Source: Chrysochromulina tobinii
Lineage: Eukaryota
Direction of reading: 5' to 3'
DNA length: 37,498 bases
NCBI GenBank assembly: GCA_001275005.1
Contig: JWZX01003294.1
Span: 1-37,498 of the forward strand
Shown: positions 3,301-37,421 of the stretch, one piece after another
Layout: each line of letters opens with the position of its first letter
Position numbering within the stretch: position 1 is the stretch's first letter
The notes under the pieces: generated by a model
Databases searched by the model: none
The model's input: the letters and a program-made list of their open reading frames with translations, nothing else
What the model was told of the DNA's origin: nothing
Translations under genes and position numbers: made by a program

Positions 3301-3358
3301 GGAAACTGTACCCAAACACGATAGGAAACTGACCCGCACCGCAAAGTGGGCTGGCCAG

Positions 3359-7724: not shown

Positions 7725-10179
7725 TCACTCGGCGCGCGCCTTGGCCGCCGCTTCCCTCGCGCTGACCGCGGCAGCCCTCGCCGCAGCCGCTGCCTGTCGC
7801 GCAAGCTCCGCAGCCGTTGCGGGAGCATGAGCAGCAGCAGCAGCGGCGGCGGGCGCGGCAGCGGTGGCAGAGGAGACAGCGCCCGCGCCCACCTCGTGCG
7901 GCTCGATGTTCGTCTCGTGCGCGACTGCCATCCGCTCGATGGCGACAGCGAGGGGCAACGAGCCCAGGTCGCCTCCTCGCCTCGAAGTGAGCGCGAGGGA
8001 GCGACCCTCGACCTCTGCGGCGCCGACGACCGCGTACATGGGGATCTTCTCCTGGTTTGAAATCTTGATCTGCTTGCCGAGCGAGCGGCCGCCAATGTCG
8101 ACCTCAGCGCGCACGCCCGCGCGCTTGCACGCCTTCACCACCTCCTCGCAATAGGGCTTGAAGTCATCCGACACGGGCAGCAGGCGCAGCTGCGTGGGTG
8201 CGAGCCAGAATGGGAAGTCACCCGCGGTCGACTCGGTCAGTACTCCGAAGAAGCGCTCCATCGAGCCAAAGATCGCGCGGTGCACCATGATCGGTTGCTC
8301 CACCTTGCCCGAGGAGGCGATGTACTCGAGTCCGAAACGGTCGGGTAGGTTGAAGTCGCACTGGATCGTCGAGCACTGCCACATCCGCCCGATGGCGTCG
8401 CGAATCTTGACGTCGATCTTCGGGCCGTAAAAGGCGCCGCCGCCCTCGTCCACGTCGTACGTCCAACCCTTCCGGTCGAGGGCGTCCGTGAGCGCGGTCG
8501 TGGCCTTGTCCCAGATGGCATCGGAGCCGACGCTCTTCTCCGGGCGTGTGGAGAGCATCACCTGTGGGGAAGAGGAGGGCGCCGTGGTGAGCACTTGCAT
8601 GCCGAGGACGAGCGCGCCGAGCAGCAGGGCGCGTCGAGAGCATCACCTTGTAGTCGGTGAACCCAAATTTGGAAAGGATGGTCTCCGTCAGGTCGAGCAC
8701 TCCGAGGATCTCGTCAGAGAGTTGCTCGGGCAGGCAGAAGATGTGAGCGTCGTCCTGCGTGAAGCCGCGCACGCGGAAGAGGCCGTGCAGAGTGCCCGAG
8801 CGCTCGTACCGGTAGACAGTCCCGAGCTCGGCCCAGCGCAAGGGGAGGTCGCGGTACGAGCGCGGGCTGTCCTTGTAGACGAGCACGTGGAAGGGGCAGT
8901 TCATCGGCCGAATCTGGTACTCCGCGCCCTCGACCTCCATCTGGCGGGCGCCGTAGTGGGCGCCCGGGACGACGCAGGGCGAGCACGCACGGGGTCAGAA
9001 GGTCAGAAGAGAGGGGGGGGCGGCGGGCTCGTGGGCATATAGATATAGAAGGGGCCTGCACGGCGGCCAGTTAGGCGGCCAGAATGGTGGCCCGCAGCGG
9101 GCTGCACCGCGGGCTGCAGCAGAGGGTACGCTCACCTGGTCGAACATTCCGTCCTTGTAGAAGTCGAAGTGGCCGCTCGTCTTCCACAGGTCCAGCGACG
9201 CCATGTGGGGCGTGTACAGCAGCTCGTACGGCTTGGGGCCGTTGATGTGCACATCCTTCCAGAATGTCTCGATGGCGTTGCGCATGCGCGCACCCTTGGG
9301 GTGCCAAAAGACGAGGCCGCCGCCCGCGTCCTGCTGAATCGAGAAGAGGTCGAGCTGCTTGCCCAGCATGCGGTGGTCACGCCGCTTCGCCTCCGCCTGC
9401 AGCCGCGCGTACTCTGCGAGCTGCTCCTTATTCTCCCAGGCCGATCCGTAGATGCGCTGCAGCATGGGTTTGGTCTCGTCGCCGCGCCAGTACGCGCCCG
9501 CGATCGAGTCGAGAGAGATGGCGTCCGCGGGGAGCATGCCCGTATGCGCGACGTGCGGGCCCGCGCACAGATCCCACCACTTCGTCTTTGAGTTCTCGTC
9601 GCCGATGTGGTAGATCGTGATCAGTGCCGTCGGGTCGCGAGCCACGATCGAGTCGAGAATCTCAAGCTTGTATGGCTCGTTGATTTCCAAGATGCGCCGG
9701 CGTGCCTCGTCGGCGGAGACCTCCTCGCGCACGAGCGGCAGCTTCATCGAGATGATCTTGTCCATCTCCTTCTTGATGCGCCGCAGGTCGGTCTCGAGGA
9801 AGGCCTCCTTGTAGTCGAAGTCGTAGTAGAAGCCATTCTCGATCCACGGGCCGATGGTCACCTTGGCATCCTTGAAGAGGCGCTGCACGGCCATGGCCAT
9901 CACGTGCGCGCTCGTGTGCCGGATGCGCAGCAGCGTGTCGCTCTCCTCATTGCTCGGCAGGACTATGGGCTTCACCGCCTCGATAAGCGCGGGCACGTCA
10001 GCGGTGGCCTCAGGCGTCTCCACGGCTTGCATGATGACAGAGCTCGCATGAAGGCGGCGCGCGACGATCTGCCGCGCGGCGGCGAGCCGCGATGCAGCGG
10101 GAGCCCCGCTTGGCTGATACGCCGCCACCAGCGAGGCAATTGACACGGTGCGCAAAGCTCGAGCCCATCGTGCCACCAT
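7725..10179 (-). CDS. thrS: Threonyl-tRNA synthetase, organellar (likely plastid) type; exons 10179-9136, 8940-8647, 8561-7725
   Basis: Motifs [65 protein letters not shown] and [15 protein letters not shown] introns 9135-8941 and 8646-8562 join three ORFs in frame. There is an N-terminal targeting-like extension and no TGS domain. Confidence 0.97.
8562..8646 (-). other. Spliceosomal intron (85 nt) with a 5' copy of the downstream exon and a shared 3' module
   Basis: Starts gtgatgctctcgacgcgcc, while the next exon starts gtgatgctctccacacgcc. Ends gcatgcaagtgctcaccacggcgc...ttccccacag. Confidence 0.9.
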
Positions 10180-10659
10180 TTCGAGCCGGTCGTCGAGCGC
10201 AGGTCCTCGCGGCTTGAGATCAAGTCTCGTGAGTTTTCTGTGAATTCACGTCAATTGCCGAAACGTGGCTCGTCACATTCACGACACTGCTTGTAAATTC
10301 ACATTCACGTCAATTGCCACCACGGCAAGACGCGCAACCACCGTGAACGACCGTCACCGTGTCAACGGTCCCTTCCACGGGTCCATCCCTTCGTTCTTGG
10401 CACAGCGCACGAGCGCAGCAAAGCCGCACTATCACCGCCTCCTGCACTCCTAGGCGCCCATCGACTGCCCTTCGGCCTCTGCGTTGGCCAGCATGCGCGC
10501 ACAGCGGTGGCGGGTTCACCCGACAGCTACATGTAACTCACTTACATCTTCTCCTCGACTCTTCTCCATGTGGATGATGGAGTCAAGTCATGATGTCGTG
10601 ACTGCGTGCATGATGACGTGCATGCTATCTCGCAGACGATGCATCACATCAAGGGGGAA

Positions 10660-13600
10660 TCAAAGGCACCGCGCCGGTGTCCTCACACGATCCGCGGCTT
10701 GGCTCTGGGGCCGTTCTTGGGTGTTGTCTTGGGTGTGGCCTTGGGTGTGGCTTGGGTGCGATTGGCCTTGCTCGCCTGTGTAGGCCTTGCTCGCCTGTGT
10801 AGGAAGGTCCCACACACCAACCCAACGTAACACACCAATGTAGTTGGCTTTGCTCGCCTGTGTAGTTGGCCTTGTTGCGTCGGGCATCGACGTTTTCGCG
10901 GCTCGCGGCTCGGGATGGCCGGCCTGACCTGTACGTTCCAACTCGGCATTGCAGTACATGCATCTATACACACAGCAGCAGAGGCAAAGGGGGATGAGGC
11001 CCAGAAGGCCAAGAAGTCCGAGGAGCTGCGGTCCCTTGACGCTCAGTCTGTCGTTGGTGGCGGGCGGTGGCGGCGGCGCATCAGGCGGCGCGGGTGGCGG
11101 CGACGGGCTCATGGTCACGACTTGGGTGACGACGGCGACGACGGGGGCGGAGGTGATCGCCAGTCCGGTGAAGCTTGAGGCGGCAGCGGGGGACGTGAGG
11201 GTGGTGGTTATGGAGCTTTGGGTTACGGCCGCCGCGCTCGCATCAGGCACGGTGATGGCGACGGTGATGAGCACGGACGCGCTCGTGACCTCGACCGCAA
11301 CGGCGGTGGGGTCGACACGGGCGAGCGTCGCGAAGCGGCCGGCAATGTCGGCGCGTTGGGAGGGGCCGAAATCTTGCACGTTGCCAGAGGCGGTCATGGC
11401 GATCCTCACCTGCTGCACGAGGGCGCCCGCGACGCCGTGCTTGATGACGCGCACCATTGAGAGGACTAGAGGCTGCGGATTGCCCGACACGTCGTACGCT
11501 CGCACTTCGAAGTCGAAGGTGCTCGAAGAGCCCAACGGCCGTACCGGTAGCAGTTCGGCCACAAATGTGACCGTCTTGAGCTGACCGTCGCCCACCGTGC
11601 GGATCGGGAAGCCGACGAGCGTGGGCGCGCTACCCGCGGCGGCGGTGTGTGCCTGGGTGAGGCGTACTGAGCCGGCGAAGACGTCGAAGAGGCTCACCTT
11701 GATTACGGCGCCGAGCAGCGGGCGCTGGGGGGCGAGGGCAAAGGTGCGGCTGAGAGTGAAGCCGATCACCCCCCGCGGCGCCGTACGCGCGATCCAATCG
11801 TAGAGAGCGCCGCCGTCGCCGTCGGTGCCCCAAAATGGCGTCGAGAAACCGGAGGGGGTCTGCGTGATCCTTGCGTCTCGGAAGGTGACGACGCCACCGA
11901 GCGTCGAGGGCGGCTCGTCGCGCTGGTACAACCATCGCTCCATATGGGCCACCTCGGCGGGCCTCGCGAGGTGAGGCACCCATTCAAATTGCGCCGAGGC
12001 CAGGAAGCACCACGCGTCCGGGGAGGTCGCGGCGGTGCGCCCGAGCTCGAGCGCCACATAGGCGAACAGTGCGGGGTTGACGATGGTGGAGGAAGCGAGC
12101 AAGTACGAGACGCGCATCTGGAGCAAGCGCATCGAGCTCATCAGGTACCGGTAAGGGAACGAGGCGATCAAGCCCCAGCGCGCAGTGCCGTTGAGCATCG
12201 GCGCCGTAGCGTTCCAACGGCCGCCGCGCTCCCCAGGGGAGAAGGTCAAGTACTCGCTGGCCCAATTCCCTTCGTACTCTTCGTTCTCGTCGCCCAGCAG
12301 CCCGCCGCTCGAGAGGATCGGTGCCGACTCGTTGACGAAGACGTACTCGCGCGCCCAAAAGCTCTCGAAGCCCTGCCCGCTCGGCATGTGCGGGATTTGG
12401 TACCAGTAGTGCTCGACGAAGCCGTTGCGCGAGCCAAAGCCGAGGGAGAGTCCGTAGTTCGACTCGCCACCCATGAGCACCTTGGACGGAACGCCCGCGC
12501 ACACGCTCGCCCACGCATCGAGGCGCTCGCGCACGTGCGGAAAGAGGGCCGCGGGGTCATAGTTTGGGTCGTACGCAGTCCCAGAGGTCGCATTCGGGTG
12601 TTTCGGCCCGATGTACTCGTCGCCGTACGACGCGGACGCGTAGCCAGCGTACATCATGACGACGGTCTCGTTTTGGCAGAGGCGGCTGGCACCGAGCGCG
12701 GCGAGGAAGGCGAGGTAGCGTGCGTGGAACTGTGGGTCGATGGGGTCGTACGAGCCGCCCGCCTCCGCGTTGGCCGCGTCGGTATAGCGTGTGCTGATAT
12801 TCCGGCCGGCCAAGTACGTTGGCGCCGACCCGATGTGTGAGGTCAGGATGCGCAGACACACCTTCCAGCCGCGCCGTGCGGCCTCGGCGACGTTGGCATG
12901 GAGCGGTGCGAAGTTGTACGTCCCCTCGGTCGGCTCGAGCTGCAGCCACGTCGCCCAGATAGAGTAGACGGGCGTCGACCTGAAGAGCATCCGAGACGCT
13001 TCTGGCAGCACCATGGCTGACGGGCCGCCAAAGGGCAGGGCCGTGTCGGGGTAAGAGTTGTGAAAGAGCCTGGGCGGCGTCGGCACGTAGTTAAAGGAGC
13101 GCTGCATCGCCAGGAGCCCTGTCGGCGAGGGCATCGTGTTGGGCGGCAGGCCCCAGTCATACCCAAGCACGGTGGTATTAGGCTCGTCGCGCCATGGGTC
13201 TGGCTCCACGTGCGCATACGTCTTTCCCGCCTCGGCAGGCGTGCACCCGTTGAAGTAAGCCGCCTCCCCCGCCTCCCTTCCGAAACACGAAAAGTTGCCA
13301 AACCAGGCCACCGGCCACACATCCTCTCCCGGGTCGACCAATAGGGATTGAGGCGGCCAGAGCGGCGGTGAGAGCGGAGGCGAGGGCGGCGGAGGCGGTG
13401 GCGCGGGCACCTGCTTCGCCCACGTCACACCGCCGAGCCAGCGGGCGCCGGTGCCCACCCACATGGTCTGTTTCGGGCAGTTGCCGGTCGGTTTGCTGTA
13501 CGCATACGAATACGAGAAGAGGTGGCAGATGCCGTTCCAGTACCCAAAGAAGGCGTAGGAACACGTGGCCGACGTGCGGCATGCCTCACGGCACAGCCAC

Positions 13601-14553
13601 GGGTTCGCGTTACTCCTTTCTCCCCGAAGGACCAGCGGGTTCGATCCGTTGGTCGTCTGCGCGCCGCCGGGAAGAAAGTAGACGGTGACGTGCGTGCCCG
13701 CTCCCGTGTGCGAGCCTGGCCAGTCGCATGTGCAGATGTTGTTGCCACTGGAGCCGCAGCTCGCACCGCCGCTGTGCGCCGGGAAGCTGTCAACAGTGCT
13801 CGCGACCACGCCACTCACAGTGCAGCCCGAAGCGCAGCCTGTGGAGTCGGTCAGCACGCTCATCGTGAGCGCTTGCGGGGGCAACGGCGGCGGTGGCGAG
13901 GGAGGCGGCGGCGAGGGAGGCGGCATGAGCACGCCCTTGACGAAAGTGACGCCCCCCTGCATCCCGCCCGATGTACTGGAGCCCACCCAATGGCTCGTGC
14001 GCGGGCACGAGCCGCCGCCCGCTAGGTACGAAGCATCCCATGAGAAAATGTGACAGAAGCCTGCCCAGAAGCCGAAGAATGCAAAGTTGCAGCCACCCAC
14101 GCCGGAGCTGCTTGCGTTGCGGCATGCCTCGCGGCAGCGCGTCGCATCGGCCGTATTCTTCAGGAGCCGGTTGGCCACGTCGGCGTCAGTGCACGCGCTG
14201 TAGCCCCACGATGCCGCGCCCGAACTGTTGGAGCATGCGCCTGTTGCGGTAAAGTACACAGTGATCTGGACGCCCCCTGCCTGATTCGGGTTGGAGGCGC
14301 TCGGGTACCGTGGCGCGCCGTTCACCCACGTGCCGGGCCAATCGCACGAGCAAATGTTGTTGCCGCTGCTGCAGGTGGAGCCGCCCGCATACGAGTTGAC
14401 CGATGGCGGGTAGGAGGCGGCAGCCACCTGTGTGCCGACGACGGTAGTCGCCGCCCCACATCCGCTTGGACAGCCTGCATCAGAGGTGAGGACGCCGATG
14501 GTCGCCTCCTGAGCCGTGACCAGCTGGAAAAGTGCCGCGAACAAGAACTTCAT
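10660..14553 (-). CDS. Large type I membrane/cell-surface protein: signal peptide, two Cys-rich PAN/apple-like modules, poly-Pro linkers, glycoside-hydrolase-like TIM barrel, SEA-like module, TM helix
   Basis: Start MKFLFAALFQLVTAQ. The module CREACR..C.[FY]AFFG[FY]W.G.CH[IL]FS occurs twice. WLQLEPTEGTYNF resembles clan GH-A/GH42-like barrels. LLGLLGLLGLIPLCLCCCVY is a TM helix with a Cys cluster. The 3' end is uncertain because it is repetitive. Confidence 0.75.
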   Translation of the reverse strand: MKFLFAALFQLVTAQEATIGVLTSDAGCPSGCGAATTVVGTQVAAASYPPSVNSYAGGSTCSSGNNICSCDWPGTWVNGAPRYPSASNPNQAGGVQITVYFTATGACSNSSGAASWGYSACTDADVANRLLKNTADATRCREACRNASSSGVGGCNFAFFGFWAGFCHIFSWDASYLAGGGSCPRTSHWVGSSTSGGMQGGVTFVKGVLMPPPSPPPPSPPPPLPPQALTMSVLTDSTGCASGCTVSGVVASTVDSFPAHSGGASCGSSGNNICTCDWPGSHTGAGTHVTVYFLPGGAQTTNGSNPLVLRGERSNANPWLCREACRTSATCSYAFFGYWNGICHLFSYSYAYSKPTGNCPKQTMWVGTGARWLGGVTWAKQVPAPPPPPPSPPLSPPLWPPQSLLVDPGEDVWPVAWFGNFSCFGREAGEAAYFNGCTPAEAGKTYAHVEPDPWRDEPNTTVLGYDWGLPPNTMPSPTGLLAMQRSFNYVPTPPRLFHNSYPDTALPFGGPSAMVLPEASRMLFRSTPVYSIWATWLQLEPTEGTYNFAPLHANVAEAARRGWKVCLRILTSHIGSAPTYLAGRNISTRYTDAANAEAGGSYDPIDPQFHARYLAFLAALGASRLCQNETVVMMYAGYASASYGDEYIGPKHPNATSGTAYDPNYDPAALFPHVRERLDAWASVCAGVPSKVLMGGESNYGLSLGFGSRNGFVEHYWYQIPHMPSGQGFESFWAREYVFVNESAPILSSGGLLGDENEEYEGNWASEYLTFSPGERGGRWNATAPMLNGTARWGLIASFPYRYLMSSMRLLQMRVSYLLASSTIVNPALFAYVALELGRTAATSPDAWCFLASAQFEWVPHLARPAEVAHMERWLYQRDEPPSTLGGVVTFRDARITQTPSGFSTPFWGTDGDGGALYDWIARTAPRGVIGFTLSRTFALAPQRPLLGAVIKVSLFDVFAGSVRLTQAHTAAAGSAPTLVGFPIRTVGDGQLKTVTFVAELLPVRPLGSSSTFDFEVRAYDVSGNPQPLVLSMVRVIKHGVAGALVQQVRIAMTASGNVQDFGPSQRADIAGRFATLARVDPTAVAVEVTSASVLITVAITVPDASAAAVTQSSITTTLTSPAAASSFTGLAITSAPVVAVVTQVVTMSPSPPPAPPDAPPPPPATNDRLSVKGPQLLGLLGLLGLIPLCLCCCVYRCMYCNAELERTGQAGHPEPRAAKTSMPDATRPTTQASKANYIGVLRWVGVWDLPTQASKAYTGEQGQSHPSHTQGHTQDNTQERPQSQAADRVRTPARCL

Positions 14554-14837
14554 GTGGGAGAGCAAGCGAGACTGTGGGCAAGATCCCATTTCGGCAACAC
14601 CTCGAGGTGGTGAGCTTCTCGACGCTTACGATGGGGGATCGGATCGGCGAAGGCGCGGCTTCGCGACCGTCTGGCTCGCGACCCCATTTCGGCAAGCCCT
14701 AGGAATCCTTGAGCACGAGAACTTTTTGGGAAAGATTCACGGAACGCAACGCTGGATCACACAATGTGCTTTCGGTGATGCACCAACCCCCCCGAAATCA
14801 TGAGCGTCGCGGAAGTTCGACCTCGGTGGCGTGATCA

Positions 14838-16213: not shown

Positions 16214-17785
16214 ATGACCACGATGCGCGAGCGCGTCGGCTGGGTGGTCGACAGATGCCCCGGATTCGGGGCATCTGTCGACCACAAGTCGAACGTTCGC
16301 GTGTGCTCGTGCTACTTGCCTGCGTCCTCGCAAATTACACCGCGCCCTGCACCGTGGCGCCATGACCAAGACGCGCTTCTGGCCTCATCAATCTGGTCGC
16401 GGCAGCTTGGATGTGAAGCATCTCGATGGTACCGCGTGCCTTGGACCATGCGCGGGTTGGGAACCACGATTATCGCACATTTGAACTCGCTGCTCCCAGT
16501 GTGGATAGTACCCAAGGATGCAGATGGGCGCGGCCCGGCCGTAATGCCCGCCGTTTGGACAGAAGAATCGAGCGATAGGTTGTTGTGGGCAGCCGCTGAC
16601 ACTTCGCTTGAATGCCGCACCTGGTACGGATGCTACTGGCAGCATCTGCACACCGTGTGTGCAAATTCGAATTCGAGTGCGAACTCGACTAGAGCGTACG
16701 CCCTGTGGACCAATCTGAAACTTCCGGTGCGTTTGGTGCACAACGACTCCCGCACCACCACAATCAACGAGAGAGTTCAGTACTGGCGCGAGCGATATCG
16801 GAGCACCTTTGAGGATCGATGGGGCAGCCTAGTACTCGGAGCTGCGCTCCTCGACGTGTGGTGGCGTCCGTCGGAGGCTCTACGCTCATTGGTCGATGCG
16901 CGGCTGAAAGAGATCTTTCGTGGCGGCGCTGCTGAGTGGTCGTGTGTCGCAGTGCACGTGCGCCGCGGCGACGCGTGCATTACGCCATGGAGACGCTGCC
17001 CGCCCCTCGAGGAATATCTGGTACCCGCGCGCCATCTCGCGCGACGGTACGGCCTACGGCGACTGTTCATCGCCACCGACGAGCAGTCCGTTGTGGACGA
17101 ACTCGTCGCCACCGGTAAGGGGACTTTCCCCCTTTCCACCGGTAAGGGGACTCCCCCCTTTTCCACCGGTCAGGCTCGCGGGCATCGTGCCGGAGCCATG
17201 GCGCCAGAGCCATGGGTCGAAGTGCTCCACCAGCGCATAGATCGCTCATGGCTGGCAGTGGAGAGGAATAACAGCAACGTGAGCAGGTTCGACCAATATG
17301 ACTGGGTGGAGCACAAGCTGCAGCGGCGCCAACAGGACCAGCAGCAAGGAGCGCCGTCCCGGGCAAACTTCACTCCAATTGTCGACGTGATCACGGACAT
17401 CGAGGCGGCTAGCCGCTGCACGGCCCTTGTAGGGGACCTGACCGCCGGCATCACTGAGCTCATCATGCTGCGCATGGTGGCACGTCTCGGTCAAGCGCCA
17501 CCTCTCTACTCTCTCGGGGGCAAGGGATTTTGCCCGCTGGGCGGAACGCCGTTTCGTTGTGCACCGCCGGATCATTTGATCTCTCCAAGCGAGGTCAGAG
17601 CGCGCGAGGGGGGGAAGAGCGCGCTCGCAGCCCAGACCGAGGCGAGTAGGTGGCAAGCATGCCGGGACAGTGGTACTTGCCAACGCTTGCCTCGAGGAAC
17701 TGAAGCAGTGGAAGATCATCACGCAGATGAGGTCAAGCAGTGGCAAGCAGCGTGTGAGGCAAGCGGTGCTCGTGAGGTGGGATGA
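16214..17785 (+). CDS. Fucosyltransferase-like glycosyltransferase (GT23/FUT8-NodZ-like); 5' end uncertain, possible intron 17115-17207
   Basis: GDP-fucose-binding motif I AVHVRRGDAC, motif II LFIATDEQSVV and motif III DIEAASRCTALVG. Confidence 0.78.
   Translation: MTTMRERVGWVVDRCPGFGASVDHKSNVRVCSCYLPASSQITPRPAPWRHDQDALLASSIWSRQLGCEASRWYRVPWTMRGLGTTIIAHLNSLLPVWIVPKDADGRGPAVMPAVWTEESSDRLLWAAADTSLECRTWYGCYWQHLHTVCANSNSSANSTRAYALWTNLKLPVRLVHNDSRTTTINERVQYWRERYRSTFEDRWGSLVLGAALLDVWWRPSEALRSLVDARLKEIFRGGAAEWSCVAVHVRRGDACITPWRRCPPLEEYLVPARHLARRYGLRRLFIATDEQSVVDELVATGKGTFPLSTGKGTPPFSTGQARGHRAGAMAPEPWVEVLHQRIDRSWLAVERNNSNVSRFDQYDWVEHKLQRRQQDQQQGAPSRANFTPIVDVITDIEAASRCTALVGDLTAGITELIMLRMVARLGQAPPLYSLGGKGFCPLGGTPFRCAPPDHLISPSEVRAREGGKSALAAQTEASRWQACRDSGTCQRLPRGTEAVEDHHADEVKQWQAACEASGAREVG
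16244..16285. repeat. Perfect 19-bp inverted repeat with 4-nt loop
   Basis: gtggtcgacagatgccccg-gatt-cggggcatctgtcgaccac. Confidence 0.95.
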
Positions 17786-18269
17786 TCTGGACTTTTCCCT
17801 TAACTTTTCCCATTTAATGAACGTGCTTCCAACCAAACCTAACCAGCGAGCCGCTTCGCATTCACACGCACACACGACACGTTGTCGTGTGTGTGTGTGT
17901 GTGTCTCCTCCCCGTCGAGTATTAACAGCCAATTCACACACTGGCGGCCGAGTATCAACAGTCAAATTTCGTGACGCGGGCTTTCGATGACGACGACCTC
18001 AATGCACACAAATTCCACACTCCTTCCACACATCAGCATCACACTCCGGGACCGTCCGACGTCGACTTCCTCAACGAACTCCATATCTACTCTCCTGGAG
18101 GCCGATGCCCCTCCTCAACGCTTAATCCTGTACGCCATACTTACATTCCGAGAAGGTGGCCGAATTTTCACAGTAGACGAGTACCATTTCACACTCTTCT
18201 CCCTCGAAGACGGACGATGTGCTCGAGCGAAGTGACACGGGCGCGCTCGACACGGGCGACTCGCAGACT

Positions 18270-19899
18270 ATGTCACCTGACGAGGGATCCGCTTCCGCCG
18301 AGGGCTCCATTCCCGCTACCGCGGGTGCGTGGGTATACACATGCAATGTGGGCGTCGAGGCGGAGGCGGCCGGGCGCGCTGTCCCCAAATCATTCCAGGC
18401 GCTCCGTCGCGACCTTGCGGTGTTGCCGTGGCTCCTTGCGACCGAGGCCGACCTCGTGATCGCGCCGCCGCCACTCCCAGACTTCATCGCTGCCCTGCAG
18501 GCCGCTGGGGTGAGCGGCATGTGCCAGTTTTGTGCGAGCTTGGAGGAGCTGCCGTCCTCTGTGCCGATCACAGGCCACCGTCCGTACGGCGTCGTGGGCC
18601 CTCACCTGCGCCGCTCGCTCGTCGGGCGCTATCGTGAGCACGGCGTCGTATGCCACTCGGTGGAGGCAGTGCGTGCAGCCGTGGCGGAGCAGCCCGACGA
18701 GCGCGCGGTACTCAAGGCCGAGTTTTCCTCCTCTGGTCTGGGCGTGCGCGTGTGCGAAGGCGCCCAGGACGGCGCGACCCCGATTGCAGCGGAGGGCTCT
18801 GAGCTGGCGCGCTGGGCGGCGAACTGCATCGCCCGCGACGGCGCGTTGCTCGTCGAGCCGTGGCTAGACATAGTCGCCGAGTTCACAGCGGAGTATTGGG
18901 AAGGGTCCTGGTGCGGTGCGCCTTTCCCAACATGACATGACTTGACTTGACTTGACTTGACTGGTGCGGTGCGCCTTTCCCAACATGACGCTGGCTGATG
19001 AGCCGTTACAATGAGCATCGGCGTTAATGGGGACACTGAGGGCCTCTGATGGCCTCTGATGGCCTCTGTTGGCCTCTGAGGGCCTCTGATGACCTCTCTT
19101 CGCGTCCGATCGCCCGCGTCATGTTGGGCGTCTGCTCTCCTCAGGTGCGGCATCTCGATGCCCATCGTCGAGCACCGCCGATGGATGGGCCAATGGCTAG
19201 GCTCACCCGCAGAGCGATACTCGTCGGAGGTGGTCCGTTTCGTCTTTGAGGAGCGACGAATCGAAGCAGCACTCGCGCCCCTCGACGTGCCAGGCACGTG
19301 CGGGCCACTGATGGCCTCTGATGGCCACGGATTGCCAGGCACATGCGGGCTCGAGACGAACCACAGCGATGACCTGCCGCATGTCATCGAGGCACATGCG
19401 GGCTCGTCACCTCGACTCGTGGTTCGTCACATCAACAAGTTTCGTCACACCGACTCGTGGTTCGTCACAGGTACGTGCGGGGTGCCCACATGCGGGCTCG
19501 ACGTCGCTGTGGTTCGAGATCACACGACTGGCGCGCTGCAGGTCAAGATCCTCGAGCTCTTGATTGCCCTTGATTGCCCTTGATTGCCCTTGATTGCCCT
19601 TAATTGCCCTTGATCTTGGCGCGCTGCAGGTCAAGATCCTCGAGCTCAATGCGCGCATGCAAGTGCTCACCACGGCGCGTCATCCCCTTTCCCCACAGGT
19701 CAAGATCCTCGAGCTCAATGCGCGCACGACGTTCTCGCACTACGCGCTGGCCGCCCAGCGCCGCGTGCCGCGCGCGGTGCGCTTTGAGGTGTTGCGTGTC
19801 TCCGAGGCGGCCGAACGCCCCAACCTCGTGTACTTGACCGACCCCCAGGTGGCGAGCATGTTCGTGGCGGTCGTTGAGGTGGCCGCCGCGAGGGTGTGA
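18270..19899 (+). CDS. ATP-grasp-fold protein; exons ~18270-18910, 19145-19293, 19471-19541, 19699-19899
   Basis: AVLKAEFSSSGLG, LLVEPWLD, GLDVAVVR and KILELNARTT (the E-x-N-x-R ATP-grasp signature). Removing introns 18911-19144 (GT), 19294-19470 (GC) and 19542-19698 (GT) gives one continuous frame. The start is uncertain. Confidence 0.75.
19542..19698 (+). other. Stacked introns 19542-19629 and 19630-19698, each starting with a copy of the downstream exon
   Basis: caggtcaagatcctcgagctc occurs three times. The first unit holds a (ttgattgccc)n array and the second holds the shared 3' module. Confidence 0.85.
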
Positions 19900-20269
19900 G
19901 ACCGAGGCGATGCAGGAGAGCCGTAGCCGTCACGGTACCGGTAGTGGGGTGGCGCAGCACTGTTAGCGCCAAGAGCTCCCGAGGCGCGAGGCCGTCTTCG
20001 AGACGGTGGAGTACGTGAGCGCGGGACCGTCTCGATCCTCATGGATCCTCTCGAACTTTGACTGGACAATAGGAGGAAGACTGGAGGCGCGTGCCAGTTC
20101 CGGTAGGATGAGAGGCTCGTACAATCACTCGTCGTACAGGGCAGCGAGCACCAGGGACCACCCTGAAGCGAGGGAGCGGGAGGAGCGCGACGAAACTGGA
20201 CGAGGCGTCGACGTTACACCGCGAACTTGAACAGATGTCGCGCCCCTGCTCGCAGTCCAGGAAGGGAAC

Positions 20270-22941
20270 ATGACGGTCCTTCCCATCTCCGACACGTCCG
20301 GCGAGCTGCCGGACCGTTTTTCCTCGGGCCAGCGCATCAGCAAGCGCGACTACTTGTACATGAATCAGACCGTCGGCTCTTTGCCGCGGGCTGGCGAGAC
20401 ACAAGAGGGGCAGCAGCTGGCCGACACGCTCCTCGGCAAATTGTCAGCAGCCAGGAGCTCCGCCTCGCCGCCTCGCAAGGCCGCCGAGGCCTTGCCACTC
20501 TTCATGCTCCCGGCGCTGAGCAAGCGCCAGCTCGCCTCGAAGGCCGATGCCTTGGTCGAGCAGGCGCTCTCGATCGAGACGGGTCGATTTGCGTCCAACC
20601 AGTCGGCGTGGCGTACACGGGCCAATCGCACCTCGAGGTGCACTCGGCAGTCAGCAGCGACGTGCGCAAGCGGATCCAAGAGGCCGCCATGCTGACCGCC
20701 TCCATGCCGTGGAAATCGCCTCGCGACGAGTCCGAGGTGGCGAGCGTGCTCGCGTCTATCGCCGCGGGCACGACGCCCCGAGCTTCGCAGCAGCCCTCGA
20801 ACGCCACCTCCAAGCATCCCTCGAAGCCGAGCACGCCGCGCGCCGAGGACGGCTCGCGCGCCTCGAAGCTCTCCTCCATCGCCTCAAAGGAGCCCTCGAA
20901 GCCAGGCACGCCGCGGGACGGACAGGGCTCGCGAGGCTCTCGACCTTCGGCGCCACCGCCGGCTTCGGATTCGTCAACTGACGACATTGACGATCGCCGT
21001 TGGGTCGCGACGCGCGCGAGCGTCGTCACGCCCGCCGCCACCGCCGCCGCGGCGCGCGCGGCGATGCTCGCCGCCGGCACGCGCTCGTTTGCGTGCGTGC
21101 TGGGTGCGGAGAGGCTCTCGTTAGCCAGTCGCGCCGCGCTCAGTACGACGCTCGCGCCAGGAGCGCTCAGTACGACGCTCGCGCCAGGGGCGCTCAGTAC
21201 GACGCTTGCACCGGTGGCGAGCCCTCGAAGCGATGCGGCGCTGCTGGGCGCGATGCGTACGCTGCAGCGCACCGCCGTTGCCGCCGAGGGCGCGACCGTG
21301 CTGCTCACGGCGTGCCTGCAAGCGCAGTCCCTCATCAACGCGACTGACGTGTGCTTACTGCTCTGGCGCTCGCCTTCCGCGACCGACGGGCCGACCGTGC
21401 TCCGTCCGTCCGAGCCCGACACGGCGCCCCATCGGAATGCATGCGCTGCCCTCTATGGAGACCAGACGGCCCTCAGGCTGCTCGGGCGCGCCGCCGCGGG
21501 CGCTCACCTGCTCTCCCTGTGCGCCCAGGACGACGCGTCGCCGGCGGGTGCGGCGGTGCCCGCGGCGGGCGCGCCTGGATCCGTGGAGTTCACGGGCGTC
21601 GTCTCGAGCGCACCTGGATCCGTGGAGGTCGCGGCCGCACTCGCCAACGCCGCGGTGCCGCTCAGCACGACGCTGCCGCTCAGCGTGCTGAACCGGTTTG
21701 CCATGAGCCTGCGACGCGCCCTCGCGATCCCGCTGCCGCTGCCCTTCCCTCACGGTCCGGCCCTCATGCTGCTCGCGGATGGTGCTCGCATTCCTGCGGC
21801 ACGAGCGCCTGGCGCGCCCACGACAGCGCCCGACCCACCCGCCGCCGCCAGCGCGCCAGCGGCGCCGCCCGTGGCACCCTACACTGTGGAAGAGCAGCTC
21901 GAGATTCAAACGCTGGTCACCGCTGCTGCAGCCATCTTTCCCACAGCTCGGTCGCAGCCCCCCGATGCGCCCACGGCAGCGCCCGCGTCGGCGCTCAGTA
22001 CGGCGCGCTCCACCGCCGACGGCCCAGGGGCAGCGCGCTCGCCACGGCGCTCGCCGCGCTCGCACGTGCCGACGCATCATCACGTCGCGCACTCGCACCC
22101 GCCGTTTGGGCGCATGCGACCCGTCCGAGCCGCCGCCGGCCCGCTGGCCTCGGCCGGCTCTGCCGCGTTTGGCTCCACGGCCGATTTCGTCACTTCCACA
22201 GCCTCCGGCGGCTCTGCCAAGTTTGGCGCTTCCGTGGGCGCTCCCGCCGCCACCCACCGAGGTTCGCCCAGGGAGATCGGTTCGATGCGTTTTGCCGGCG
22301 GCTCGCCGGGTAGCTCACCGTTCGGTCGGTCGTCGCCGTCGCGCTCGGTGACGGCGAGCGCCGTGGTAACGGCAGGGCTTGCGACTGCATTCCCCGCCTT
22401 CCCCGCCTTCCCCACCTTCCCCGCCTTCCCTATCACGGCCCTCGATGAGCCCGTCTTCTTCCGATCGCCTTCCGCCGGGGCTGCTTCGCCGCGGCATGCC
22501 GGAGTGTCACTTCACCCGTCCGGAGCGCCGTCTTGGCGCCTGCCCAGCACGCCCCCGCACCCACCGGCGCTCGGCACGGCGCTCGGAGCTCCCTCGAGCT
22601 CTCCGATGAAGCCAGGGACGCCGCATGAGCTCGGGCCGTCCCATGAGCCCTCGAAGCCCAGCACGCCGCGATCCGAAATTGGAGCGAATGGTGCGCCCGG
22701 TCGGCCGCCCTCCCGAGGCCGCAAGGCAGGCCAGCCGGGGCGAACGGAGCAGATGGAGGTGGCCGCCCAGACCGACGCTGTCCACTTTGCAGACAGCTTC
22801 AGCAGCTTCGCGAGCTTCGGAGCCCGCACATACCCGCCGCTGCTCGGCTCGTCTCTCGCGGCATCGGCAGATGCGGCATCGATTGCGTGGGCGCGATCCA
22901 GGCTGCTTGGCGGTGGAGGCCATCGCGCGTATCCCTACTAG
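20270..22941 (+). CDS. Ala/Pro/Ser-rich hypothetical protein with a possible degenerate GAF-like domain; apparent frame break near 20600
   Basis: Long ORF with GC3-biased codons. Segments ACLQAQSLINATDVCLLL, ALAIPL and YTVEEQLEIQTLVTAAAAIF recall GAF topology. ALSTTLAP is repeated 3x (27-bp unit). ORF 20270-20695 looks coding in another frame. Confidence 0.5.
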
Positions 22942-27918: not shown

Positions 27919-30051
27919 TCACTTGGCCCCGGCGCCGGTCAGCTCCTCAGCTGTGATCATCAGGGGTCATCAGAGGTCATCGGCAACGGCGCCCCCGCCC
28001 CCGGCGCACCCGCGGTCGCGCCCGACACGGCGCCCGGCGCGTCGATGTGGAAGGTGCGCCTAAGCTCTTCGAGCTCGCCCGACACGGCGCCCGGCGCGTC
28101 GTTGTGGAAGGTGCGCCTATGCTCCTCGAGCTCGCCCGACACGGCGCCCGGCGCGTCGATGTGGAAGGTGCGCCTATGCTCTTCGAGGCTCTTCGAGCTC
28201 ACTCAATTCTGCTGCCGCCGCGGCGCTCGCAAACCCATCGAGCAATGATACCGCCTCGGCCGACTTCTCTTTTGGTCTTCCTTGGCTGTCCTCGGCCTCG
28301 AGCAGCTCAGCCACCTGCGGCGAGGGCTGACCGTTGTTGGCGCGGTTCGCGCGTAGCATTTGAGCCGCCTCGACCTTGGCCTCCACGTCACCGGTCACGT
28401 ACACGTCGCGTGCACGCTGCCGGCGCACGCGCAGGCCGGGGTCGGGTGGTGGCGCGCCCACGCCAAGCTCAAAGACCGGTGTGAAGATGGACTTCACGAT
28501 GAGCGGGCCGTACTCGAGTGTGAACCGTGCGAGGTAGGCCACAAAAGCGAGCGCCACCTTGGGCGGGAATTTGAAAAAGATGCTGATCCCGAAGAGGATG
28601 CGCGCGTCCCACGTGGCATGCTTCTCGTTGCCAGGCAAGCCGTCCCACCCAGCGAGGAAGCCGCCCCACGTGACCATGTCGAGCTTGAAGAAGGCATCAA
28701 AGAAGCCCCGGAGCATCTCAACGGGCTGGGCGCCGAGGAACTCGCCTCCAAAGATGGCAAAGTCGCGTTGGAGTCGTCTGCCGTACGGCCAGAGCGCCGC
28801 ATGCGCCGCCGCTGCCGCCGCGTCCGGGTCAAACTTGTCCGGACCCCGGCGGAGCTCTGCCGAGATCGCCTCGGCGACTTCAGTGGACGAGGCGAGCATG
28901 CGGCAGAGCTGGAAGCCGGTCGCGGGGTGCACGGTGTTGGCAGCGCCGCCAAAGGGCACGACGCGCTGCGTGGGCGTGGGCAGGGTACCGCCCATCGGGA
29001 TGTAGCAGTACTCCTCGTCCAGGATCTTGGTCGGGTCGTACTTGATGCCATGGAAGGCGAGCCGGCGCTCGAGCCGCTTCTTGAGCGTCGCGAACTCGAG
29101 CCGGCGCTCGCCTCGGCCAACGAGGGACGTTTCCTCGAAAAAGATCTCCTTGCCGGGCCCCTCGCCTACCGGCATCACGTAGACGAACGAAGGGCGCTCC
29201 TCGCCATCGTCGTACAGCTCCGTGCCCGCAAGGTGGTCGGTGCGGTAGTCGAAGAGCGTCATCGCCTCGCTCGCGTACGGCCCCAGCGCGCCGCCCTCGA
29301 CGTCGACGCACAAGCCGTATGCGATCTGGTAGCCGGGCGGAATCTCCTTCCACAGGCCTCCACTCTCCGGGGCGTCGCGCAGCGTGAGGCGCGACTCGAA
29401 GCCGGTGGCGTCGACGACGACGCTCGCGCGGATGATCACGGGCTCGCCGCCACCCGTCGGCGACACGGTCACGCTCGAGCCGCTCGCATCGTGCACCAGG
29501 TCGCCATCGAAGAGGTTCACGTTCACAGCGTTCGCGGTCACCAGACCTTCGATGAGCTCGACGCCGCCCGCCACATGCTTCTGCTGCAGCATCTTCTTGA
29601 GCGCCCGCCGGTTCACCTGCAAATAGGGCCGGTCCACCCGCGTGCGCTGATCGGCCGGCATTTCGAACGAGCCGCCAAAGTAGAAATCGGTGACGGCCCA
29701 GTGCTTGTTGACGCACTCGAGCAGCTCGGGCATCTTCAGCTTCGATGCGAGCGCCTCCCACTCGGCCCGCCACGAGCCGTAATTATTGGGCCACGGCGTC
29801 TGCGGCCTCGGATCAATGAGCGCCACCTTGTGCTTGTCGCGAGCCAGCAACGCCGCCATCACGTAGCCGGCCGGCCCGCCGCCGATCACCGCCACATCGA
29901 ACTCGCTGCTGCCAAGCATGCTCGCCGTGCTGCATCGGGATTTGCACACATCGATGGCGGTGCGAGCGTGGGTCGCAGCATGCGTGGCGAGGCCGTGCGC
30001 CGGATGAGCAGCCGCGAGCAACACGGTCAACACCGTCCGCTTCCCCTTCAT
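27919..30051 (-). CDS. LCYB: Lycopene cyclase (CrtL/LCYB type), plastid-targeted; probable last intron 27951-28202 (the unspliced ORF stops at 28174)
   Basis: FAD-binding VIGGGPAG, WPNNYGSW, YQIAYG, FFEETSLV, EYCYIPMGG and VHPATGF, with signal peptide MKGKRTVLTVLLAAAHPAHG. Confidence 0.92.
28021..28199. repeat. 57-bp tandem repeat, ~3 copies
   Basis: cccgacacggcgcccggcgcgtcg recurs at 28021, 28078 and 28135. Confidence 0.95.
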
Positions 30052-30295
30052 TCTCGCTCGCGTTGACCTCGCGCAACGAGATTCGACGAATCCAAAACTG
30101 AGGGTAAGTACATTCGAGAACTGTGTGTCTTCACCAGCGGCTTGGCGCTACACGGGAATTTCGAACACGTTGCTTCCGACGAAGCCGCGCGTAATTCCGC
30201 AGAACTCTCCTTGGAGATGTGTCCTTCGTAAGCGTCCTCGGAGGCGAGCCGCAAGGTGCAGCGAGTCACCACTTCGAATCGCCGGGCGAAGGAGC

Positions 30296-30730: not shown

Positions 30731-31009
30731 AACTGCCGCCCTCCACCGACTAGGACGTATAGGAGTCGGGATGGGGATCTCTACTTGCTGTAAAGTTCAT
30801 TTTAGTGAATGTGAAGATGACGAGACTCGAACGACACTTCACCCTGGGACCCAGCGGGGGCTGACGGGTGCGGACTCTCAGGCGCGTGGGCAAAATTGTA
30901 ATTCCTCCGCTGGACCGCTGCCACCTGCCTCGCGTCGTGCGGCGCCAGCCCTCCGGAAGACGAGGTCGCTATCTCCATGCTCAGTCTCGAGAGCGCAGTG
31001 CCTCCGAGC

Positions 31010-32532
31010 TCAGAGGCCCTCTCTCGACCACTCCGAGTAGTGCTCCGGGTAGCGCTCGAAGTGCTCTCGCAGCGCTGCCCTCTGCTGCTCGCCATTCCAG
31101 TCCAGCTTGTCGTACACGTCTGTGAACATGTGGACCGCCGCCGGGCGTGGCGCCTGGCTCGCGACGTTGAGCGATGCGATGGCGTCGCGCCGCGCCTGCG
31201 TCCGTAGGTAGTCCTCCATCTGGGTGTTCCACCAGCCGCGTGATGCGAGGTAGCGCCCGAAGCGAATGATGGGCGATCTCGCCTCCCAGAACGCGCGCTC
31301 CGAGTCCCACCCCTGATGAGGGAGGCAATCAGGCGGCCATCAGCGGCCATCAGCGGGGTCCCCACACCTCGACCGGAGCGCCGCGTGTGCGGTACTGATC
31401 AGGGAGGCAATCAGGCGGCCATCAGCGGCCATCAGCGGGGTCCCCACACCTCGATCGGAGCGTCGCGTGTGCGGTACTTGGTGTCGTCATCGCTCGTTGA
31501 GTGCGCCCCGATTCGGTACGTCATCGCCTCAATGAGGCACGGGCGCCCCTCGTTGAGACAAATGTCGCGCGCCTTTTTCGTCGCGGCCACAACGGCGAGG
31601 AGATCGTTGCCGTCGATCCGGATCGTCGGCAGACCAAAGGCAGGGCCACGTGGCGCGATGCCGTCCGACCGGTACTGGTCCTTGGCGTTGGTCGAGATGG
31701 CATAGCCGTTGTTGCGGCAGAAGAAGATCATGGGTGAGCCGTGCACGGCGGCAATGTTGAGCGCGGAGGGGATGTCGCCATGCGAGGCCGTCCCTTCGCC
31801 AAAATAAGCAATCGAGATGCGCGGCTGCCGCGTGCGCTTCATGTGCAGAGCCACACCCGTCGCGTGCGGCGCCTGGGTCGCGAGCGTCGACTTGACGTAC
31901 AGGATGCAGCGCTCCTTGGAGCCGATGTGCAGCGGCAGCTGGCGGCCATGCGCCGGGTCGTGCGCGGTCGCGCACAGCTGGTTGGCCACCTCCTGGAACG
32001 TGAAGCCCCTCCAGAAGAAGACCCCTAGCTCGCGGTACTGGGGCAGAACCCAGTCATCGGGCTGAAGCGCCGCGGCCGAGCCGACCGTGGCACCCTCCTC
32101 GCCGCGGCCCGTCAGGTAAAAGGAGATGCGCCCCTGCCGCTGCGCGTCGAGGAAGATCTTGTCAAACTCGTTCACGCGCAGCATCGTGTGCATGCACGCG
32201 AGCGCGTGCTCACGAGAGAGCGCCGGCACGTGCGCCTCCGCGCCCGGAACCACCCTGCCGAGGTCGTCCATGATGCGGAAGCACGGCATGGCCGCCGGCA
32301 CGTTGTCGACGTGCGGGTACCAGAAGTCCATGGACGTCGTGTACGACGATTTGGCGCCCACGAAGAGCGTGCTCTCACCCGTCGGCCGCGTCGGCTGCCG
32401 CAGGCGCGCGATCTCCTCGCGCAGGCGCGCGTTTTCAAGCTCAAGGTCGGAGAGGCGCGCGGTACAGAGGCTTCGGCGTGGCGCACGTGCGAGCTGCGGC
32501 AGCCGGCGAGGGAGCGATCGAAGGCTTCGCAT
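31010..32532 (-). CDS. BCKDHA: Branched-chain 2-oxoacid dehydrogenase E1 alpha subunit, mitochondrial; intron region 31313-31449
   Basis: AQRQGRISFY, QYRELG, YFGEGTASHGD, RNNGYAIST and YRIGAHSTSDD. Arg-rich mitochondrial-type leader MRSLRSLPRR. The 3' exon GWDSERAFWE..FTDVYD joins in frame. Confidence 0.95.
31313..31449 (-). other. Two near-identical 55-nt introns flanking a 27-nt copy of the upstream exon end
   Basis: gtgtggggaccccgctgatggccgctgatggccgcctgattgcctccct[g/c]atcag occurs at 31395-31449 and 31313-31367. The spacer 31368-31394 encodes YRTRGAPVE, against the genuine YRTRDAPIE. Confidence 0.9.
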
Positions 32533-32683
32533 CGAAGAATGACGAAACGCGGGCGGCCTTCGGCCTTCGCGCGACAGTGCAAGACACACCTTCTGTGCAA
32601 GAGTGTGGTGTGGGTTTTACACAAATGTACATGTAACCGTTTCCACTCCGCATCAAACTTGCACAAAAACTTTTCGCGCGCTC

Positions 32684-34378: not shown

Positions 34379-35558
34379 AAAATGATTGTGAGAGCACTGT
34401 GAACATGTGTGGATCGCTGTTTTGTGTTCTGTGAAGTTATTTCCTAATTTGGAAGCTGCCTTAAAAGGCGTTTTCAATAGGGTGCTGAAAAATTTACGCA
34501 AAGCGAGCGCGCGCTTCCACAGAGAAGTTCGCAAGTTCGCCTGTACGGGGTGAGTGCTCGAGAAAAAGTGCTCGTCATGCTGGCTTTCTTCCAGACACCC
34601 GCGGCTCACACGAAGGTCTCTCATGCTCGCACTCATGTCGCACGACGCCAATGGCGCCCTGAGAGTCACCCTCCGAGCCGTCGAGCTGTGACGGCTGGCG
34701 CCCTAAGCCACGGCGCGACGGCTGCCCATAGGTGCCGGCTTATCGCCTGCGCGCGTACCAGCCCGCCCGCCCGGTCAATCTGGCCAAGATGGCGCGCAAG
34801 CGTGCACAGCAGACGCGCATTGCCTTCCGCAAGCCTGCTCTACGCAGCGTACACCTTTGCTGTTTTGCCATCTGGTGATCACAATTCGCGGCTGCGGTCT
34901 TGGTGACAAGAAGCATTGGGGTAGCGAACAGCTGTAGCGGGCGCTGCATGATGGTTTCCCTTGCTTCGGCCCTTCGCAGCTTCGCGTGGCTCTTCGAGCC
35001 GAGCCCGAGCGGCCTCACCTCGTGTCGTTCCTAACTTCCTATACTCGTCCGGCTACAAGGCAGTCATCCAGAGGACGTCGAGAGTGTAAAGAAATTTAGC
35101 GTAGCGCATGGCTGTATCCGGAATCTGCATAGTAAACGTGAAGTAAACGAAAGCCGAGAACGTAGAAGCTTGACGGTGGTGCTGCGGGCGGCCACCGCGT
35201 CTGTGAAAATGTGAAAAGCCGGCTCCGGAAGAGGACGTCGGTTGTGGCGAAGCATCAAGCATACGACGGCAACGCGATCTCGATCGCGGCGCGCGCGATC
35301 GGGAAACCAAATCTTGCGCCGCGGAGCTGACAGCTTAAACGTTTATTTATGCGGTGCGTGCCGAACGGTCGCCACGTGATCGCGAACATGTTAGATGTTA
35401 CGGCGGCCAACGTGGTAAAACAACGATCCGCGCGCCCCCCGGCACCGGACACGCCTACCGTTACTATACGATTGGCTCCGCTAGAGCTAGCGCTGCGGGC
35501 CACATGCCCAACTACGTACTACATCTCAGGCTGCACCGTAAGCATCTATGAGACTCCC

Positions 35559-37421
35559 TCACGAGAACATAAACTTCAGGTCCTCGAGCCGCGTCGCCCG
35601 CTCCTTGTAGTCGCTCGGGTCGCGCGCGTCGAGCGCCCCCTTGACGAGGGCCGTCTTCTTCGCGTGCAGCTGCAGGATGCGGTCCTCGACGGTGTGCTGC
35701 ATGAGGAAGCGCTTGACCCGCACCGCGTGCGATTGGCCGATCCGGTGCACACGATCGATTGCCTGCTCTTCGACCCCCGGATTCCACCAAGGATCGAGCA
35801 GGTAGACAGTCTGGGCGGCCACGAGGTTGAGGCCGACGCCGCCCGCGCGCAGCGAGAGCAGGAGCACGCGCACGCTCGGCTCGCTCGCGAAGCGCTCGAG
35901 CGCCTTGGCGCGCGCAGGCTGCGCCATTGAGCCGTCGAGCCGCTCGTACCTGGGGCCATCATCAGCGGCAATCGGGCCATCAAGTCATCAGCGGCAATCG
36001 GCGGGGATGAGACTGGCACTCAGAGCATTCGCATCAGAGCACTCGCAGAACATCGCACTCAGATCAGCGCTGCTGAGCGTACTCGATGCCTTCGTGCTCG
36101 AGAGGCCTCTGCACGAGGTCGAGCATCGCCGTCCACTGCGAGATGATCACCGCCTTGCGCACGCTCGGCACGACGCTCGTGCTCGGCACCGCGACCACAG
36201 GCGGGCCGAGCGCCGTGCTGAGCGTCTCCGTCAGGTCGGCCATCAGAGCCGTCAGCTTCGTCGACGGGCGCCACGCCTTGTCAAGGTCGACCGCGAACCG
36301 CGACTTGCGGGGGAGAGTGAGCAAATCGGCCCGATGGACCGTCTCGCGGCACACTGGGCACGGCGCAGCACCCATGGCGTTCGCCAAGCAGCCGCTGATG
36401 CACTCGCGGCAGAAGACATGGGCGCAGTTGGTGATGACGGCGTCCTCGGGCGCGTCCAGGCAGATGACGCAGCACGACTGCACGACCTCGTGGTCCGAAG
36501 CGCCCAGATTCGAATCTGGCGCCGCGAGATTCGAATCTGGTGCGGCGAGATTCGAATCTGGTGCGGCCGTCTCGCTCGGCGGCAGCGGCAGCGGCGCACC
36601 CGCGCCCGCCGCGCCCGCACCCGCGCCTACGCCGAGCGAGGATGAGCGGCTGAGCTCACGCAGCGCATTATGAATGAACGCGGGGCCGCTGTGAACGGGG
36701 CCGCTGGCGCCGCTGCCGCTGCCAGCTTGCTGCTGCTGCTGCTGCTGCTGCTCGGCGGTGCGCTGCTGCCAACGTTTGAGCAGCACATCTCCGATGGCAT
36801 TGAGGTCCTTGGAACAATCCGCGCGCGAGAGCACCAGAAATGGGTGGTCGCATGCCTGGCGCATCTGGAGCAGCATGGCGAGCACCGAGGCATGCGTCAT
36901 CGTGGGTAATTACAGGGCTCATCAGAGGGGCAGTACCTGGAGCAGCATGGCGAGCACCGAGGCATGCGTCATCGTGGGTAATTACAGGGCTCCTCAGGGC
37001 TCATCAGGGCTCCTAAGGGCTCATCAGAGGGGCAGTACCTGGAGCAGCATGGCGAGCACCGAGGCGTAGTTGTTGAGAACCTTGCCCTCAGCCACGAACG
37101 CGTCGAAGCGCACCTTTGACTGCGTGCGCAGCGCCTCATAGAAGTCGAGCTCCTCGGCTGTGAAAAGGAGCTTCTCGATGACCGTCTGGCGCGGCGGCAG
37201 CATGACGATCGGCTGGCCGTCTGCGCCGCGCGTCGCCTTCGTACGCCGAAGCAGCAAGGGGCGGAGGGCGCCATGCAGTCGCGTGAGCGCGCGCGCGTCG
37301 CGCTGCTCCAGCAGAGGACGCGAGATGACGCGCCGCCAGCAGCTGTACTCATCCAGGGGCGCGAGTCGCAGAAAGTGGAGAAGGGAGAAGAGCTCATCGA
37401 GATGGTTTTGGATGGGCGTGC
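35559..37421 (-). CDS. RAD5/HLTF-like SNF2 helicase with RING finger, 3' part (continues beyond the window); exons 37421-37039, 36864-36083, 35949-35559
   Basis: GTPIQN, LLLRRTK, LLQMRQACDHP, RING (CVICLD..CAHVFCREC..CPVCR), IISQWTAML, RLDGSM, SLRAGGVGLNL and DPWWNPGVEEQAIDRVHRIGQ. Introns 37038-36865 and 36082-35950 restore the frame. Confidence 0.93.
36865..37038 (-). other. Stacked introns 36937-37038 and 36865-36936, each ending with a 27-nt copy of the upstream exon end
   Basis: gcctcggtgctcgccatgctgctccag occurs three times. Both units start gtactgcccctctgatgagccc. Confidence 0.88.

Follow-up and report, generated by a model that had tools for sequence, protein, structure and literature searches.

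Introners that carry one splice site and recruit the other from a target-site duplication (TSD) have been described in Symbiodinium, in Polarella (classes 4/5 and 6/8/10), and in families from metagenome-assembled genomes (MAGs) of marine Chrysochromulina (bioRxiv 10.1101/2020.10.14.339549, 10.1101/2022.06.06.494994); here and below, published systems are described from portions of the cited sources. The duplications of these introners are short and fixed in length within a family (4, 5, or 8 nt). We analyzed introns of Chrysochromulina tobinii, starting from a stretch of 37,498 nt (positions 1 to 37,498 of contig JWZX01003294.1; hereafter, the window). They resemble the TSD-recruiting introners in forming repeated families whose copies bring one splice site with them and take the second out of a duplication, and differ from them in that the duplication varies from 10 to 55 nt, only half of the intron is shared among copies, both polarities occur, and flanking sequence of a parent copy is carried along. 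In the supplement of a 2025 survey (PMC12130899), this same assembly (GCA_001275005.1) is scored with 0 introner families, and no haptophyte family among 15 rows has an automated TSD call of more than 5 nt; one of these rows notes 10-bp terminal direct repeats. The main text of the C. tobinii genome paper mentions introns once, and no description of these families was found among the titles and abstract openings searched, with subscription journals outside that coverage. Long TSDs may be on record for the marine Chrysochromulina MAG families in the supplements of PMC12130899 and PMC9860276. We conclude that the duplications and the shared families are real and genome-wide in C. tobinii, with an estimated few thousand young introns.

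A sequence-only reading of the window had proposed that introns there begin with a copy of the next exon or end with a copy of the previous one. Boundary match lengths were measured directly (Table 1), and the chance level was taken from 18,874 pairs of unrelated family target sites, which share at least 5 nt in 5.8% and at least 6 nt in 2.4% of pairs. The proposal was borne out for intron 2 of thrS, where 18 of the first 20 nt are identical to the next exon, with 11 nt exact, and for RAD5 intron b, where the claimed copy of the previous exon matches throughout. The short matches claimed at 18911-19144 and in RAD5 intron a are present, but at 6 and 5 nt they carry little weight, because unrelated targets share such lengths in 2.4-5.8% of pairs. 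The next-exon match in BCKDHA is as weak as had been stated (7 nt with one mismatch); the striking feature of this intron is an 82-nt tandem unit containing 27 nt of the previous exon. RAD5 intron b consists of two mirror-type units in tandem; its filler motif matches nothing in 130 fetched loci. Junctions were placed by homologues and an intron-less allele for RAD5, and by the NCBI gene model for BCKDHA.

Exact splicing was observed for two of the window cases. A 724-aa protein (P0020, from a 2,535-nt contig) is the exact translation of thrS spliced at both 8562-8646 and 8941-9135. RNA contigs from three RNA runs were mapped on positions 17600-22300 (depth ~4; the libraries may contain DNA), and contigs X14-14 and X16-21, from two of the three runs, join 19538 to 19696, which equals removal of 19542-19698. 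The matches reported for 19542-19629 and 19630-19698 are therefore present, but the RNA contigs remove them as one 157-nt intron and not as the two that had been proposed. At 19294-19470, the match to the next exon stood but the status as an intron did not: the segment is in frame and open, and it is kept in RNA contigs X14-14 and X16-20, the former of which is spliced at the next intron. This segment is absent from all five homologues that align across the site, and is therefore an insertion. It adds 59 residues and is possibly an intron that is not yet efficiently spliced. The segment at 18911-19144 repeats its own first 26 nt internally and contains arrays of 5-bp and 10-bp repeats. No splice joint across it is listed, and a single RNA contig spans a portion of it in unspliced form; RNA contig depth is 2-6 here, and absence of RNA cover at this site proves nothing. 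The label "ATP-grasp" for the gene at 18219-19899 has no support from Pfam, which gave no hit. A search of the window against Rfam found nothing, and scans of viral contigs gave one contig.

Table 1. Introns, insertions, and an empty site analyzed in the window.
Feature	Position	Strand	Description
thrS intron 2	8562..8646	-	20-nt copy of next exon (gives GT donor), 27-nt spacer, family-1 core at 8599, pyrimidine tract, AG
thrS intron 1	8941..9135	-	195 nt, without exon copy; present in relatives without intron 2 (internal control)
Intron 1 of "ATP-grasp" gene (18219-19899)	18911..19144	+	6-nt next-exon match (weak)
In-frame insertion with GC donor	19294..19470	+	177 nt; 10/11-nt next-exon match; 10-bp family repeats
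Nested double-event intron	19542..19698	+	157 nt; whole spliced as one by RNA contigs
Unit of nested intron	19542..19629	+	31-nt duplication (18 nt of next and 13 nt of previous exon) around 10-bp repeat array
Other unit of nested intron	19630..19698	+	31-nt duplication (28 nt + CAG), family-1 core at 19658, acceptor
BCKDHA intron	31313..31449	-	Family-2 acceptor at 31324 and 31406; spliced so in NCBI model KOO22268.1
RAD5 intron a	35950..36082	-	5-nt next-exon match, near chance
RAD5 intron b, mirror type	36865..37038	-	Insert gives GT donor; exact 27-nt copy of previous exon gives AG
Empty site AG|GTGCG in RAD5	37102..37125	-	N-terminus of relative P0245 reads as probable family-2 intron end (read-through peptide)

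The inserted sequence between the exon copies had been taken for filler, and the introns for something unlike introners altogether. Neither view was upheld. Intron 2 of thrS and 19630-19698 have a 24-nt core in common (family 1), after which come a pyrimidine tract and then CCCCACAG, and because the thrS and 19542-19698 introns share this core and acceptor, they are introner-like where introners are defined as repeated intron families. The inserts belong to high-copy families, and DNA depth over them far exceeds the single-copy level (~46). Family-1 loci were picked by a scan for the core motif (137 stretches of an estimated ~2,000; 130 loci in all) and gave 169 distinct copies with full flanks, 111 of them with a pyrimidine-rich acceptor. 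A copy of the next exon, scored at ≥10 within 90 nt upstream, was present in 83 of these 111 copies, compared to 0.36% of 5,495 shuffled pairings. The exon copies start with GT or GC in 79 of 83 cases, and the introns are mostly 64-95 nt long. Just 36 of the 83 have an upstream exon with a terminal AG, so the acceptor AG belongs to the insert. A second family, consisting of 10-bp repeats ending in CTCCCTCATCAG, was detected in the flanks and was not used as a seed; 30 of its 63 clean cases have an exon duplication (13-45 nt; null expectation, 0.23%). A further over-represented motif showed an acceptor-anchored duplication in 0 of 18 cases at a score of ≥10.

The families also occur in other arrangements. 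Several loci have the mirror form, which resembles RAD5 intron b in that the donor is part of the insert and a copy of the previous exon stands at the end; some family copies lie between duplications without an acceptor; and some inserts hold both splice sites within the duplication (19542-19629 and L104). In some genes (L029, L049, L067, L015, and L044), at least five family introns are packed into 1-2 kb, frequently as nested or tandem copies, and the genes next to these contain none. Away from the seeds, 269 kb contained 18 core clusters and 14 family-2 clusters; extrapolated to 59 Mb, this gives ~3,900 clusters of family 1 (2,300-6,200) and ~3,100 of family 2, estimates that are rough because the contigs were selected. 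The copies are not similar over nearly their whole length, as about half of each intron is an exon copy peculiar to its locus and the pyrimidine tract differs from copy to copy. Among 34 confident coding calls for the 83 duplication cases, 33 copies were in the sense orientation and 1 was antisense (control, 208:215). The two copies of a duplication differ by ~5% on average, and 21 of 47 mismatches are synonymous compared to ~40% expected, a share that appears to match neutral drift after a true duplication, with the exon copy alone constrained. The same duplications recur as read-through peptides in many other contigs and therefore are not assembly errors, which rules out the artefact alternative raised by the sequence-only reading. 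Its statements that the structures lack a fixed TSD length and terminal inverted repeats agreed with the range of 10-55 nt and with a check by eye only of the copies listed, respectively.

Recent activity, which had also been proposed, was supported by empty sites in relatives that are ~98% identical in protein. These readings come from proteins and read-throughs of genomic contigs, not from allele DNA. Protein P0314 (16 contigs, up to 29 kb; 97.9% identity) starts in the read-through of thrS intron 1 and crosses the position of 8562-8646 uninterrupted, and P0149-P0151 and P0153 likewise lack this intron from the exon-2 ATG. P0245 (98.3% identical) lacks RAD5 36865-37038 and retains the other RAD5 intron; its N-terminus has an apparent family-2 acceptor where this strain has an empty site (37102-37125). 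As judged from the read-through proteins, empty-site alleles lack the duplication and the core alike. For the three introns of the 18219-19899 gene, two sites were looked up and no empty allele was present among the 15 members listed per cluster. No interruption occurs at these sites in more distant homologues, which lie on contigs of 52 kb and 346 kb. A paralogue lacks one 69-nt copy, and the tandem number of whole intron units varies between strains. Pairs of loci found by motif were not counted for age, because selection on the motif makes them share the insertion. These comparisons suggest that the gains of thrS 8562-8646 and RAD5 36865-37038 are recent. Two side observations concern RAD5. 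P0249 (98.9% identical) diverges into other sequence at the intron-a site (36083), possibly through a parallel gain or a replaced 5' end. P0001, a RAD5 homologue (55% identical, 42-kb contig), has a tandem insert with a 23-residue period at residues 88-297, a few codons from the intron-b site, which is probably a read-through intron gained separately.

The source of some inserts could be traced to other introns. In L067 and L048, the spacer of one copy is the end of another copy's own exon duplication, 1.7 and 2.5 kb away, and the exon copy of the daughter overlaps the borrowed stretch by 5 nt. Parent and daughter in L048 apparently lie in neighboring genes (read by eye). L044 is similar, with the parent 1.9 kb away and downstream. 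For the analysis of pairs, 16 redundant or orthologous loci were removed and tandem copies were merged. Rare shared 5' flanks occurred in 12 of 222 cluster pairs on the same contig and in 87 of 19,878 pairs on different contigs (13-fold enrichment), and such relatives often lay 1.5-2.5 kb from each other. Of 21 pairs at a distance of 1.5-2 kb, 6 had such flanks, and 2 of the 12 pairs were on opposite strands. The spacer matched the copy's own next exon again over at least 10 nt in 10 of 54 longer spacers (control, 0.3%), as might be expected after repeated template jumps. At the start of the core, the copy extends across each of the first three bases in 18 of 139 cases, and 62 of 83 family-1 copies match the master 5' string for only 3-4 nt.

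The analysis supported the proposed double origin of the splice sites, with a long target duplication of variable length providing one and the insert providing the other, and templated insertion, one of the classes suggested at the outset, is the class of mechanism that fits best. Within it, template-switch copying of the halves of existing introns is the best reading of these sequences, and our confidence in it is evenly balanced. DNA synthesis at a break or stalled fork would switch to an existing intron at a few matching bases, copy one half of that intron, and return to the gene slightly upstream of where it left, so that 10-55 exon bases would end up in two copies with the shared sequence between them. 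The template would be DNA, and the enzyme a host repair or replication polymerase, of the polymerase theta or MM-BIR (microhomology-mediated break-induced replication) type, and not one encoded by an element. Switches at 2-5 nt of microhomology are a described mark of MM-BIR and alternative end joining (PMC7407515). The exact AG|GT register would follow from microhomology to the parent junction together with selection for clean splicing, each new intron could in turn be copied to make another, and tandem intron units would result from unequal exchange between the paired exon copies. The occurrence of both polarities, of several families that are unrelated, and of parents close by is easier to reconcile with a general host process than with a single transposase. 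With confidence just short of even, we propose more broadly that introns here propagate themselves without a transposon enzyme, any intron end being copied by template switching into a nearby or distant exon, the long duplication supplying the missing splice site, and each product becoming a new template.

Several points weigh against template-switch copying. Clear parent-daughter cases are few (3-4), the pairs are not independent, and the family-1 loci were chosen by their core motif. Microhomology at the return junction is little above background (mean of 3.0 vs 2.2 nt, four pairs). Many related pairs are on different contigs, and distant copying is probably common. About three-quarters of acceptor copies begin at nearly the same core base, as would a defined element end. 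The spacer re-matches could be later deletions, local likeness could stem from later gene conversion, and the sequence captured from parents is all internal to the parent intron, as it would also be with an RNA template. The analysis identified no enzyme and observed no new insertion event.

One alternative, which we consider unlikely, is that an HUH transposase (Replitron- or Helitron-like) moves these copies as non-autonomous elements, with a short target at one end and variable parent flank at the other. Local hopping is known for transposons, and the C. tobinii copies are exact at one end and fuzzy at the other, where they derive from the parent, with duplications that vary. The target of Replitron-1 insertions is an oriented dinucleotide, their fuzzy end stems from the parent, and their target duplications vary; one Replitron protein locus was recovered from C. 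tobinii (PMC10288648). However, folding of four element ends gave no structure beyond that of shuffles (z -0.42 to 0.59), with a weak 5-6-bp stem at family-2 ends, and no clear terminal direct repeats were present in the copies listed. Moreover, the exact end changes side in the mirror type, unrelated families have the same footprint, and the shared part is ~40-55 nt in total, compared to ~52 nt at each end of Replitron-N1 (PMC10288648).

The confinement of captured sequence to parent introns, the coincidence of exact ends with splice sites, and the strong sense bias would also follow if a reverse transcriptase copied excised introns or pre-mRNA by target-primed synthesis, giving an exact splice-site end, a truncated other end, and a variable duplication. 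Variable target duplications with 5' microhomology are LINE-like. We regard this account, too, as improbable. The mirror form, with a complete 5' end and a truncated 3' end, is not a usual outcome of such synthesis; no poly(A) tail was present in the family-1 copies listed, although the 10-bp arrays of family 2 might represent such a tail if taken on the complementary strand; related copies are found on the opposite strand and in what appears to be a neighboring gene; and the sense bias also follows from selection for splicing. Template switching by a reverse transcriptase has been proposed for intron gain (PMC3443670).

A still less likely account, which we rate as very improbable, holds that plain tandem exon duplication came first and gave a weak proto-intron, to which gene conversion from other introns subsequently added core and acceptor. 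The window has many short tandem duplications (107 rows), the inserts with both splice sites inside the duplication fit this order of events, and tandem duplication is a tested route to introns (PMC3443670). But 47 of the 83 cases have an upstream exon without a terminal AG, where splicing of a bare duplication would be impossible; duplication and core are missing together from the empty-site alleles; and no intermediate was seen, in an analysis that included no DNA-level search for intermediates. Templating from a divergent allele was not supported, as the synonymous share of mismatches fits neutral drift, and abortive cDNA-mediated intron loss was rejected because it needs nearly all parent introns to be followed by GT and leaves the parent-derived flanks and empty sites unexplained.

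Other repeats and annotations in the window were recorded. At the 3' end of the lycopene cyclase open reading frame (ORF; 27930-28200, minus strand), there are three copies of a 57-nt unit, each of which closes with a repeat of the sequence before it, and 10-bp repeats and CACAG come next; this is probably another mirror-type intron, and was unlisted in the sequence-only reading. A 27-nt unit present 2.4 times at 17109-17174 (plus strand) starts with GTAAG, lies in frame within a 523-aa ORF, and is possibly a cryptic intron. Positions 1-581 and 1342-1922 form a 581-nt inverted repeat (97%). An AT-rich, transposon-like element at 2394-3575 has 71-nt inverted ends around arrays of 10-11-bp repeats, and similar arrays occur in L009 and L047. 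NCBI model KOO22269.1 (1,506 aa; 7725-14589, minus strand) joins the upstream gene at 10660-14589 to thrS, and is probably an annotation error because a separate 724-aa thrS exists.

Models of intron gain by break repair leave the source of most new introns unknown, and mass gains have been credited to transposons. In C. tobinii, an intron and the source it was made from can be linked over a few kilobases, close relatives provide alleles that have the introns and alleles that lack them, and cultures of the species exist, which makes the mechanism directly testable. The two families may supply several thousand introns in a genome annotated with ~1 intron per gene (16,777 genes). If this is correct, up to thousands of introns escape introner searches because the copies share only half of their length, and surveys that need end-to-end intron similarity would miss such introns in other lineages too. 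A route to new introns is likely present in a species in which the survey supplement scored introners as absent.

Among the other systems that these introns resemble, introners derived from miniature elements (MITEs) or DD(E/D) DNA transposons have a fixed, short TSD, which neither C. tobinii family has (10-55 and 13-45 nt). The introns ascribed to double-strand break repair in Daphnia (PMC4202315) are likewise recent and associated with direct repeats; they are polymorphic and attributed to staggered breaks, and most of their inserts are single-copy and of unknown source, whereas the source in C. tobinii is other introns, in families of thousands of copies by estimate. Tandem genomic duplication of AGGT-containing sequence (PMC3443670) similarly uses an exon copy to give a splice signal and explains duplications spanning AG|GT; there, both sites come from the duplication without a foreign insert, whereas most C. 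tobinii copies carry a foreign acceptor or donor. Replitron-1 and Replitron-N1 of Chlamydomonas share an exact end, a fuzzy parent-flank end, and a variable target duplication with the introns described here. They are 0.9-3.6 kb long, with 6-bp terminal direct repeats, a hairpin, and a Rep transposase, and are not described as intron-making in the portion of that report used here (PMC10288648). Their terminal repeats and end hairpin were not found in the C. tobinii families, among the copies listed and the four ends folded. The C. tobinii system is real, recent, and introner-like, with an unusual footprint, and there is an even chance that the mechanism itself is new.

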